DNA from: Escherichia coli
Lineage (GTDB): Bacteria; Pseudomonadota; Gammaproteobacteria; Enterobacterales; Enterobacteriaceae
Assembly (NCBI RefSeq): GCF_003334355.1
Contig: NZ_QOWP01000005.1
Reading direction: 5' to 3' (one strand)
DNA length: 64,000 nt
The position numbers were made by a program, and so were the translations under genes. The notes beneath the pieces were generated by a model, which did not search any database, had not been told where the DNA came from, and saw nothing but the letters and a program-made list of their open reading frames with translations. Shown piece by piece: positions 33,632-62,561 of the stretch (its first letter is position 1; each line of letters starts with the position of its first letter).

Positions 33632-33647
33632 ACGCACACGTTTGCGT
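33632..33647. promoter_or_regulatory. PurR box (ACGCACACGTTTGCGT) upstream of purC
   Basis: 16-bp near-palindrome matching the PurR operator consensus ACGCAAACGTTTGCGT; coordinates +/-1. Confidence 0.75.
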
Positions 33648-53865: not shown

Positions 53866-53972
53866 AGCACATTGCCGGATGCGACGCTTGCCACGTCTTA
53901 TCCGGCCTACGAATACTATGGATTAACTTCGCGTAGTTCGGATAAGGCGTTCGCGCCGCATCCGACAATAAA
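53866..53972. repeat. REP pair (BIME) between yfgD and hda
   Basis: GCCGGATGCGACGCTTGCCACGTCTTATCCGGCCTAC and an inverted copy GTTCGGATAAGGCGTTCGCGCCGCATCCGAC. Confidence 0.85.
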
Positions 53973-53980
53973 CACCTTAT

Positions 53981-54682
53981 CTACAACTTCAGAATTTCTT
54001 TCACAAACGGAATGGTCAGCTTACGTTGCGCGGTAATCGACGCACGATCCAACTGATCCAACGTCATAAATAGCGTGCGCATTTCTCTGTCGAGCCGCTT
54101 CAGCAAGAAACGCCCCACATCTTCCGGCAGTTCAAAACCACGCAAACGCGCGCGTAACTGTAGCGCCTGCAACTTATCTTCATCAGAAAGTGGCTGCAAT
54201 TTGTAGATCTGCCCCCAGTCGAGTCGCGAAGCGAGATCCGGTAATCCCAGATTCAACTGCCGCGGTGGACGATCGCCGGTGATCAACAATCGTGTTTTGC
54301 CCGATTCCAGAATTCGATTGTAGAGATCGAAAATCGCCATCTCCCACAACTCATCGCCTGCAATACACTCAATATTGTCGATACAGACCAGCGACAAATG
54401 CTCCATACCGTCGAGCACTTCCGGAACAAACCAGGTGCGTTTATCCAGCGGGACATAGCCCACCGCATCGCCACGCTGCGACAATTCCGCGCAAGCCGCG
54501 TGCAGCAGATGGCTGCGCCCCGCGCCTTCGCGTGCCCAGAGATAGATGTAACCGCTATGTTCCTGACGCAGCACGTTTTGCAGCGCAGCCAGTAAAGAGG
54601 AGTTATCCCCCGGCCAGAAACTTGCAAAGGTTTCGTCGTCAGGAAGATAAAGTGGCAAAGAGAGCTGTGCCGGTGTGTTCAG
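53981..54682 (-). CDS. hda: DnaA-inactivating AAA+ protein Hda
   Basis: Track ORF 53981..54727 (248 aa); functional start taken as the CTG that gives [16 protein letters not shown] (233 aa), from my recollection of the published start revision. Confidence 0.85.
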
Positions 54683-54776
54683 AGATACCTCAACCAGGAT
54701 TTCACAAAATCGCGAGAAGTTTACCACAGAATCCCATGATGTTTGAACCGGGCAGCAACACTGCCCGGTCGGTACA

Positions 54777-56066
54777 TTATTTGTCTGTTATATCCGCGTC
54801 TTCTGCGTCCAGCACCACTTCTTCAGGGCGCAGCACACTAATCAGTTTGAAGATCAAACTTAAGCCGATACCGACGATGGTCGCCAGCGCCATACCTTTT
54901 AACTCCGCCGCGCCGATGTTTACCTTCGCGCCACTGACGCCGATGATCAAAATCACGGAAGTCAGGATCAGGTTCTGTGCTTTGTTGTAATCCACTTTCG
55001 ATTCGATCAAAACACGAATACCGGAAGCACCGATGACACCATAAAGCAGCAGCGAAACGCCGCCCATCACCGGCAATGGGATCATCTGGATAGCGGCAGC
55101 CAGTTTACCGACGCAGGAAAGCAGGATAGCGAAAATCGCCGCCCCGCCGATAACCCAGGTACTGTAAACACGGGTGATCGCCATCACGCCAATGTTTTCT
55201 CCGTAAGTGGTATTTGGCGTAGAGCCAAAGAAGCCGGAAATCACGGTCGACAAGCCATTAGCAAACATCGAACGGTGCAGACCTGGATCGCGCAGCAGAT
55301 CTTTTTTGACGATATTAGCCGTTACTACCAGGTGCCCTACGTGTTCGGCAATAACCACTAACGCCGCTGGCAGAATAGTCAGAATGGCAAACCACTCGAA
55401 GCGCGGCGTATAGAGGGTTGGCAGCGCAAACCAGTGAGCATTAATAATCGGCGTGGTATCGACAATTCCCATTGCGAAAGAGAGCGCGTAGCCCACCAGC
55501 ACGCCAATTAAAATCGGGATAATTGCCAGGAAACCACGAAACAGCACGGAACCTAAAACCGTGACCGCCAGGGTGGTAATAGAGATGATGATGGTTTTGG
55601 AGTCTGGCGTTTGCCCTTCAGCCGGGAGTAAACCCGCCATACCGGCAGCTACGCCCGCCAGCTCCAGACCGATGACGGCAACGATTGCGCCCATTGCCGC
55701 AGGTGGAAACAGCACGTCCAGCCAGCCGGTCCCCGCTTTCTTCACGATAAAAGAAACCAGGCAGAACAGCACGCCGCACATAATAAAGCCGCCCAGCGCG
55801 ACTTCATACCCTAACGGCAACAGTAACAATACCGGTGAAATAAAGGCAAAGCTGGAACCAAGATAAGCCGGAATTTTCCCTTTACAGATGAAGAGATACA
55901 GCAGCGTTCCAATACCGTTAAATAACAGTACAGTCGCCGGGTTAATATGAAATAAGACGGGCACCAGGACGGTTGCACCAAACATGGCGAACAAATGTTG
56001 CAAACTAAGCGGGATTGTCTGTAAAAGTGGCGGTCTTTCACTCACCCCGATAGCACGGCGCGTCAT
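54777..56066 (-). CDS. uraA: uracil:H+ symporter UraA
   Basis: ORF track trimmed to [16 protein letters not shown] (429 aa). Confidence 0.93.
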
Positions 56067-56109
56067 AGTATTATCCTCTGTATTATGTGTTATAGGCGCT
56101 TTACTCAAA

Positions 56110-56145
56110 AAAAAGCCGACTCTTAAAGTCGGCTTTAATTATTTT
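56110..56145 (-). terminator. upp-uraA intergenic hairpin with T-run (terminator/attenuator after upp)
   Basis: Minus strand AAGCCGACTTTAAGAGTCGGCTTTTTTTT read directly. Confidence 0.7.
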
Positions 56146-56151
56146 TATTCT

Positions 56152-56778
56152 TTATTTCGTACCAAAGATTTTGTCACCGGCATCGCCGAGGCCCGGAATA
56201 ATGTATCCGTGCTCGTTCAGTCCCTGATCAATCGATGCGGTATACAGTTCGACGTCCGGGTGCGCTTTTTCCAGCGCAGCGATACCTTCTGGCGCAGCGA
56301 CCAGCACCAGAACTTTGATGCTGCTGCAGCCCGCTTTTTTCAGCAGGTCGATGGTCGCGATAACGGAACCACCGGTTGCCAGCATTGGGTCAACGATCAG
56401 CGCCATACGCTCATCGATGTTAGAAACCAGTTTCTGGAAGTACGGTACCGGCTCCAGCGTTTCTTCATTACGGTACATACCGACAACGCTGATGCGCGCG
56501 CTCGGAACGTTTTCCAGCACACCGTCCATCATACCAAGACCCGCACGCAGAATTGGCACAACGGTAATTTTCTTACCTTTGATCTGGTCGATTTCTACCG
56601 GGCCGTTCCAGCCTTCGATAGTTACTTTTTCCGTTTCGAGGTCGGCGGTCGCTTCGTAAGTCAGCAGGCTACCCACTTCGGAAGCGAGTTCGCGAAAGCG
56701 CTTGGTGCTGATATCTTGCTCACGCATCAGTCCCAGCTTGTGTTTGACGAGTGGGTGTTTGACTTCCACGATCTTCAT
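56152..56778 (-). CDS. upp: uracil phosphoribosyltransferase Upp
   Basis: ORF track trimmed to [15 protein letters not shown] (208 aa). Confidence 0.95.
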
Positions 56779-56799
56779 ACTCTTTCTCCTTTGAGGGGC

Positions 56800-56826
56800 A
56801 GCCACAAAAAAAATCGACGGATTATA
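56800..56826 (-). promoter_or_regulatory. upp promoter -10 (TATAAT) and initially transcribed GATTTTTTTTG tract (UTP-sensitive start-site selection/reiterative transcription)
   Basis: Minus strand reads TATAATCCGTCGATTTTTTTTGTGGCTGCCCC, matching the described upp leader. Confidence 0.75.
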
Positions 56827-57023
56827 CCTCCTTTCTTCAAGGCGGCAATATTCTTTTCGTTGACTTTAGTCAAAATGATAACGGTTTGAGATAAAGTTAT
56901 TTTATATTCAAATGGTTACGAAAGAAGATTATTCCATCCGAAAACTAACCTTTACCCTGGTACAAGTCTTCTTTCGCCGCGCGCCTGGGCAAAAGACGTG
57001 CAAAAAGGTTGTGTAAAGCAGTC

Positions 57024-57039
57024 TCGCAAACGTTTGCTT
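57024..57039. promoter_or_regulatory. PurR box (TCGCAAACGTTTGCTT) upstream of purMN
   Basis: 16-bp match to PurR operator consensus ~65 nt upstream of purM start. Confidence 0.75.
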
Positions 57040-57084
57040 TCCCTGTTAGAATTGCGCCGAATTTTATTTTTCTACCGCAAGTAA

Positions 57085-58139
<1,055 letters not shown>

Positions 58140-58140
<1 letters not shown>

Positions 58141-58778
58141 TGAATATTGTGGTGCTTATTTCCGGCAACGGAAGTAATTTACAGGCAATTATTGACGCCT
58201 GTAAAACTAACAAAATTAAAGGCACCGTACGGGCAGTTTTCAGCAATAAGGCCGACGCGTTCGGCCTTGAACGCGCCCGCCAGGCGGGTATTGCAACGCA
58301 TACGCTCATCGCCAGCGCGTTTGACAGTCGTGAAGCCTATGACCGGGAGTTGATTCATGAAATCGACATGTACGCACCCGATGTGGTCGTGCTGGCTGGT
58401 TTTATGCGCATTCTCAGCCCGGCGTTTGTCTCCCACTATGCCGGGCGTTTGCTGAACATTCACCCTTCTCTGCTGCCGAAATATCCCGGATTACACACCC
58501 ATCGTCAGGCGCTGGAAAATGGTGATGAAGAGCACGGTACATCGGTGCATTTCGTCACCGATGAACTGGACGGTGGCCCGGTTATTTTACAGGCGAAAGT
58601 CCCGGTATTTGCTGGTGATACGGAAGATGACATCACCGCCCGCGTGCAAACCCAGGAATACGCTATTTATCCACTGGTGATTAGCTGGTTTGCCGATGGT
58701 CGTCTGAAAATGCACGAAAACGCCGCGTGGCTGGATGGTCAACGTCTGCCGCCGCAGGGCTACGCTGCCGACGAGTAA
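58140..58778 (+). CDS. purN: GAR transformylase PurN
   Basis: 212-aa ORF; start overlaps purM stop. Confidence 0.95.
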
Positions 58779-58793
58779 TGCCCCGTAGTTAAA

Positions 58794-58819
58794 GCGCCAG
58801 CTCTGCCGCTGGCGTTTTT
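58794..58819 (+). terminator. rho-independent terminator after purN
   Basis: GCGCCAGCTCTGCCGCTGGCG hairpin followed by TTTTT. Confidence 0.8.
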
Positions 58820-58948
58820 CAATTCACCTGTAAATCGCAAGCTCCAGCAGTTTTTTTCCCCCTTTTCTGGCATAGTTGGACATCTGCCAATATTGCTCGC
58901 CATAATATCCAGGCAGTGTCCCGTGAATAAAACGGAGTAAAAGTGGTA

Positions 58949-62561
<3,613 letters not shown>

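Follow-up and report, generated by a model that had tools for sequence, protein, structure and literature searches.

The upp-uraA promoter in an Escherichia coli chromosomal segment: anatomy, conservation and length variation of its T8 tract

Our analysis concerns the promoter and leader of the upp-uraA operon in a stretch of Escherichia coli DNA of 64,000 nucleotides (contig NZ_QOWP01000005.1), which is referred to as the window. The interval under study, 56779-56830 on the minus strand, begins 4 nt ahead of the -10 hexamer and ends with the last base before the ATG of upp. It is followed by the genes for uracil phosphoribosyltransferase and uracil permease, and in the matching RefSeq loci the annotated neighbourhood reads ppk-purN-purM <> upp-uraA-hda. 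The features of the locus are collected in Table 1.

Table 1. Features of the upp-uraA promoter, leader and operon in the window.
Feature	Position	Strand	Basis
-35 hexamer TTGCCG of the upp-uraA promoter	56843..56848	-	consensus scan, 10/12 together with the -10 hexamer
-10 hexamer TATAAT, perfect consensus	56821..56826	-	sequence and consensus scan
Discriminator/start region CCGTCG; last base G (56815) is "G6"	56815..56820	-	sequence
Start-position A, "A7"	56814	-	sequence
T8 tract on the non-template strand (A8 on the template/plus strand), slippage-prone homopolymer	56806..56813	-	sequence, published initially transcribed region
G closing the tract, first non-U position	56805	-	sequence
upp leader counted from G6, 37 nt	56779..56815	-	sequence
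Shine-Dalgarno sequence AGGAG in the upp leader	56790-56786	-	sequence
upp, uracil phosphoribosyltransferase, 208 aa	56152..56778	-	translation identical to MG1655 b2498; RefSeq annotation
upp-uraA intercistronic hairpin, 11-pair stem with 5 GC pairs, then TTTTT	56112..56136, tail to 56107	-	terminator scan
uraA, uracil permease, 429 aa, second gene of the operon	54777..56066	-	translation identical to MG1655 b2497; RefSeq annotation

Around the upp promoter the minus strand reads ...TTGAAGAAAGGAGGTATAATCCGTCGATTTTTTTTGTGGCTGCCCCTCAAAGGAGAAAGAGTATGAAG..., and the 26-mer TATAATCCGTCGATTTTTTTTGTGGC occurs as a single copy in the 64-kb window, at positions 56826-56801. The tract consists of exactly eight T's. 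It starts 8 nt past the -10 hexamer, with CCGTCGA in between, and lies 28-35 nt upstream of the upp ATG (56778). A consensus scan paired the -10 hexamer with the -35 hexamer at a spacing of 16 nt, and in the sigma-70 promoter test a G and an A were found at positions 6 and 7 after the -10 hexamer. The combination is singular within the window: the pattern TATAAT-N6-A-T8 has one match even when one mismatch is allowed, with a chance expectation of 0.00 on average and no match in any of 100 dinucleotide-preserving shuffles. Moreover, the upp promoter holds the only TATAAT on either strand that is followed by a run of at least six T's within 4-9 nt. We take G6 to be the productive start that is used at low UTP, and A7 is presumably the start used at high UTP, from which AUUUU... 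transcripts slip and get released.

Comparison with strain K-12 allowed us to identify the element. From upstream of the -35 hexamer into upp, the promoter and leader are identical to those of MG1655 at 141 of 141 bp. The initially transcribed region of upp-uraA has been quoted as 5'-GATTTTTTTTG, and the minus strand at 56815-56805 reads this same GATTTTTTTTG, that is, G-A-T8-G (PMC7039003). Furthermore, a primer published for the knockout of upp in K-12 BW25113 carries a 50-nt homology arm that ends before the ATG, and this arm matches exactly at 56828-56779, while the arm of the reverse primer has no exact match in the window (PMC11200800). A query of 401 bp around the promoter found a match in 5425 of 5426 complete E. 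coli genomes, each time at or beside the annotation "upp: uracil phosphoribosyltransferase", and over these 401 bp the window is 100% identical to strain PSS-12. By these matches the element is the characterised E. coli upp-uraA promoter itself rather than one merely similar to it, and as such it is already known. The surrounding 6 kb (53906-59906) differ from MG1655 by scattered single-nucleotide polymorphisms (SNPs) and at least one indel; because of these SNPs the strain is not K-12. The window is ordinary E. coli chromosome.

These results bear out the preliminary description, which had placed a upp leader with a T8 tract after the -10 hexamer on the minus strand and had called the arrangement intact: aligned with the published promoter, the tract counts eight T's at the same position, with no difference in tract length or promoter position. 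Its further suggestion, that this is the arrangement mediating UTP-sensitive start-site switching and reiterative transcription, finds support in the identity to K-12, in the published initially transcribed region, in the identity of Upp and UraA and in the literature.

Several other elements lie near the promoter or resemble its surroundings. The intercistronic hairpin between upp and uraA is terminator-like on both strands according to the terminator scan. It also attracted seven sub-threshold Rfam hits, for example to Trp_leader and STnc240, all of them on this hairpin and typical of terminator hairpins; it may serve as a partial terminator or as an mRNA stabiliser within the operon. Between upp and purM, at 57024-57039 on the plus strand, the sequence TCGCAAACGTTTGCTT matches the PurR operator consensus ACGCAAACGTTTGCGT at 14 of 16 positions. 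This site falls within the divergent promoter region of purMN, some 65 nt before the GTG with which purM starts (57103), and presumably represents the PurR box already known for purMN. A further sequence like a PurR box, ACGCACACGTTTGCGT, with 15 of 16 consensus matches, was seen at 33632-33647 on the plus strand.

The comparative part of our analysis was based on a degenerate DNA pattern for the N-terminus of Upp, which retrieved 120 loci from species-representative genomes; their upstream regions were extracted and classified. In nearly all sampled Enterobacterales the upp leader carries TATAAT, exactly 6 nt ending in G, an A and a run of seven to nine T's, with diverging flanks. The 6-nt spacer occurs as CCGTCG, CCGGCG, CCCGCG or CTCGCG. 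Genera with this module include Escherichia, Citrobacter, Klebsiella, Enterobacter, Kluyvera, Serratia and Yersinia as well as Dickeya, Erwinia, Pantoea, Rahnella, Edwardsiella, Providencia and Xenorhabdus, among others. A T8 tract is found in Escherichia, Citrobacter, Klebsiella and Kluyvera, a T7 tract in Serratia, Yersinia, Dickeya, Providencia, Edwardsiella and several Enterobacter, and a T9 tract in Rahnella, Mixta and some Pantoea.

Information content was calculated with one representative per genus for 32 Enterobacterales genera. The -10 hexamer is invariant at 2.0 bits per position, the T run likewise reaches 2.0 bits per position, and A7 reaches 1.8 bits; an A occupies position 7 in 75 of the 84 motif-bearing loci. 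The 6-nt spacer has a mean of 1.41 bits per position, and the G that closes the tract is a G in most genera (1.3 bits). Outside the module the values drop to 0.44 bit per position over the 20 nt after the tract and, beyond the 7 nt directly upstream of the -10 hexamer (1.44 bits per position), to 0.54 bit per position further upstream, and the distance from the tract to the ATG ranges from 21 to 40 nt across genera. On this profile, exactly the module of -10 hexamer, 6-nt spacer, A and T run is under strong purifying selection. Selection acts on the -10 hexamer, on a spacing of exactly 6 nt, on the G and A of the start pair and on a run of seven or more T's. T8 itself is evidently not strictly required; many genera have T7 as their standard state, and T7 is found in about 8% of E. 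coli genomes.

The -35 region is weakly conserved across genera: the T-G-C positions stand out and the rest stays at about 0.5 bit. A block directly before TATAAT (56827-56838 on the minus strand, and its equivalents) is conserved with the consensus AAAAAGCGG. Together with the weak -35 region, this conserved block suggests either that upstream contacts are extended or otherwise unusual or that promoter strength is under selection.

The comparison also revealed departures from the common design. In Escherichia albertii the G of position 6 is replaced by T (CCGTCT-A-T8), two Photorhabdus loci and one Zobellella locus read G-T7, with G in place of the A of position 7, and Plesiomonas has an interrupted tract, ATTTTATTT. 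The two-start arrangement is thus not universal, since E. albertii lacks G6 and Photorhabdus and Zobellella lack A7; such natural variants of the start pair would inform the model of start-site switching. In two Pectobacterium loci and one Brenneria locus, a GC-rich, hairpin-forming insert of about 70 nt was found 30-110 nt upstream of the upp ATG, directly after the T tract and before the leader sequence that Dickeya also has. The insert ends in the terminator-like AAAACGCG...CGCGTTTTTT and in Brenneria is apparently present as two tandem copies. It could be an added attenuator or a plain repeat-element insertion.

Outside the Enterobacterales, Aeromonas carries TATCAT-TCCGCG-A-T7, and the corresponding start regions read G-T7 in Zobellella and G-T5 in Oceanisphaera. 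Vibrio (four loci and others) has TATAAT followed by 5 or 6 nt and GGTTTG or AGTTTA, with a T3 tract. In most sampled Pasteurellaceae (four loci and others) a hexamer of the TAGAAT or TAAAAT type is followed by 5 nt and [A/G]ATTTG, in many of them with more T's thereafter, sometimes T6-T7. This [A/G]ATTTG is a match or near-match to the initially transcribed sequence of pyrBI, AATTTG. The upp leaders of Vibrio and Pasteurellaceae, which retain a -10 hexamer, a purine start and a T run of three, resemble the pyrBI/carAB type more closely than the E. coli upp type. The E. coli-type design spans Enterobacterales and some Aeromonadales, while pyrBI-like T3 designs are found in Vibrio and Pasteurellaceae.

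The tract also varies in length within E. coli. We searched the 75-bp segment from the -35 hexamer to the ATG as T7, T8 and T9 versions for exact matches in 5424 complete E. coli genomes. The T8 version was present in 4738 of them (87%), the T7 version in 439 (about 8%) and the T9 version in 19 (0.35%). In an alignment of example genomes the length difference falls inside the tract, and the type strain ATCC 11775 is among the T7 genomes. Haplotype queries that extended through to the ATG made use of a linked SNP that lies 12 nt before the -35 hexamer. With T at the linked site, 198 T7 genomes stand against 2149 T8 genomes, and with G the numbers, obtained by subtraction, are 241 and 2589, giving a T7 share of about 8.4-8.5% on each background. 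As a control we used an 8-mer homopolymer 700 bp away (56107-56114), which was an 8-mer in 5339 genomes and a 7-mer in 13 (0.24%). T7 at upp is thus about 35-fold commoner than the 7-mer variant of the control (odds ratio 38, Fisher p about 6e-119).

Two other accounts of T7 were rejected, namely that it is the allele of a single clade, in view of its equal frequency on both linked-SNP backgrounds, and that it is an assembly artefact, in view of the 0.24% 7-mer rate at the control. By these frequencies T7 at upp is a real allele, either recurrent or recombined. T9, which occurs at a control-like low rate, may be no more than assembly error. Present on at least two haplotype backgrounds, T7 could be a recurrently arising natural regulatory allele that alters upp-uraA expression in its UTP set-point or its dynamic range, and hence also uracil salvage and 5-fluorouracil sensitivity, an idea to which we give somewhat less than even odds. 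If true, the homopolymer would be both a sensor and a mutational tuning knob. A modest effect of T7 would be predicted from work of Cheng et al. in 2001, in which regulation reportedly fell off gradually as the tract was shortened. The T7/T8 polymorphism could offer a natural experiment on the effect of tract length.

The promoters of pyrBI, codBA and upp are all subject to reiterative transcription initiation, and at upp excess UTP stimulates start-site switching that leads to nonproductive reiterative initiation with release of the products (PMC12709180; PMC6245113; PMC4448216). We hold it to be highly probable, at roughly 0.93, that the element in the window is the sigma-70 promoter and initially transcribed region of upp-uraA and that it is regulated by UTP through start-site switching and reiterative transcription. 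For this strain we infer start-site use, UTP dependence and slippage from a promoter sequence that is the same as in the allele studied experimentally. For the K-12 promoter, Tu and Turnbough are said to have found in 1997 that the start site moves from G6 to A7 with rising UTP. According to that work and to the 2001 study of Cheng and colleagues, high UTP reportedly favours A7, and the AUUU... transcripts slip in the T·A tract, gain untemplated U's and are released; low UTP reportedly favours G6, and the GAUUUUUUUUG transcripts are mostly free of slippage and are elongated to upp-uraA mRNA.

In the strain studied here, RNA polymerase at TTGCCG-16 nt-TATAAT would be able to begin at either G6 or A7. 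At high UTP the A7 start would be favoured, and the nascent AUUU... transcript, held by weak U:A pairs with the A8 run of the template, would slip back repeatedly. Slippage would add U's without an advance of the polymerase, and the AUUUUn products would be released, leaving no upp-uraA mRNA. At low UTP the G6 start would be favoured instead; its GAUUUUUUUUG transcript, anchored by the G:C pair at the 5' end, would mostly copy the tract faithfully, and reaching the closing G would mark escape into normal elongation. The resulting upp-uraA mRNA would allow more uracil uptake and salvage. UTP would in this way be sensed by RNA polymerase itself, and a repressor would not be needed.

The T run can be read in other ways. 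It might be incidental, the promoter being a plain constitutive one in which the AT-rich start region plays no part in regulation, and runs of this kind are not rare on their own, as the window holds eight 8-nt A/T homopolymers in total. Yet the combination with a -10 hexamer at the fixed offset of 7 nt is unique and not expected by chance, the module is near-invariant in at least 32 genera, with the information on either side falling to about 0.5 bit, and published experiments give the tract a role. Because this conservation footprint fits a functional module, we regard an incidental T run as excluded for practical purposes, leaving it a very slight chance. The probability is almost nil for the tract being the tail of an intrinsic terminator or a transcription attenuator in the upp leader. 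T runs do commonly trail terminator hairpins, and other pyrimidine genes, pyrBI for example, use attenuators, but no G+C-rich hairpin precedes this run and the terminator scan gave no site there. Indeed, since the tract starts 8 nt after the -10 hexamer, no hairpin could be transcribed before it. The predicted fold of the upp leader RNA (minimum free energy -14 kcal/mol) is no better than that of shuffled sequences (z = -0.08) and thus shows no significant structure, and a search of 56000-57300 against Rfam with a permissive threshold returned no match, of a leader or attenuator or otherwise, at the tract or over the leader.

The same fold bears on the proposal that the U8 run acts on translation, instead of or besides transcription, by pairing within the mRNA with the purine-rich Shine-Dalgarno region. 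In the minimum free energy structure the U run is indeed paired with CAAAGGAGAAAG, which contains the Shine-Dalgarno sequence, but 81 of 200 shuffled sequences have an equally good or better fold and the pairing is made of weak U:A and U:G pairs. The poor conservation of the 20 nt past the tract and the variable distance between tract and ATG also speak against such pairing, and we assign it a slight chance. A similarly slight chance remains for the tract being mainly a mutational switch, a contingency-type repeat whose length toggles upp-uraA expression between lineages. The true variation of tract length in E. coli, with 439 T7 and 19 T9 genomes, the similar share of T7 on two haplotype backgrounds and its excess over the 7-mer variant of the control homopolymer all fit this proposal. 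Against it, 87% of E. coli genomes keep T8, and a change by one T would not act as an on/off switch because the tract lies outside the -35/-10 spacer and outside reading frames. Furthermore, T7, T8 and T9 all appear compatible with function, since each is the standard state of whole genera. UTP-dependent start-site switching with reiterative transcription remains our preferred reading of the tract.

Overall, the upp promoter is a textbook example of "repression without a repressor", in which the UTP pool would be read through start-site choice and transcript slippage. The intact element adds no new mechanism. Our comparative results are modestly useful, and the conservation map and the frequency of the T7 allele are the mildly new items among them.

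Set beside known systems, the closest relative is the upp-uraA promoter of E. coli K-12, which has the same -35 and -10 hexamers, CCGTCG, A, T8, G, leader and start of upp; the element is without difference, and only the strain differs. For three further systems, the original descriptions are said to be those of Qi and Turnbough in 1995 for codBA, of Liu, Heath and Turnbough in 1994 for pyrBI and of Meng, Turnbough and Switzer in 2004 for pyrG. The codBA promoter of E. coli has a T6 tract in place of the T8 at upp, and its set of alternative start sites differs from that of upp. It lies at a different locus, which is not in the window, and likewise controls a pyrimidine salvage operon. With its initially transcribed region ATTTTTTG, codBA follows the same logic: start-site switching depends on UTP, and the reiterative transcription that takes place in a T run is non-productive (PMC12709180; PMC7039003). 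E. coli pyrBI (AATTTG) and carAB P1 (GTTTGC) share with upp the UTP-dependent reiterative transcription in a T run with release of the transcripts (PMC7039003; PMC6245113). In contrast to upp, these two promoters have a T3 tract and no start-site switching, and UTP acts directly on the choice between slippage and extension (PMC12709180). The pyrG gene of Bacillus subtilis, with the initially transcribed region GGGCTC, resembles upp in that a nucleotide is sensed by reiterative transcription at the transcript start (PMC7039003). However, it senses CTP instead of UTP, and its slippage, which takes place at low nucleotide concentration, is productive: the extra G's are kept and form an antiterminator, which is the opposite logic to that of upp (PMC12709180; PMC7039003).
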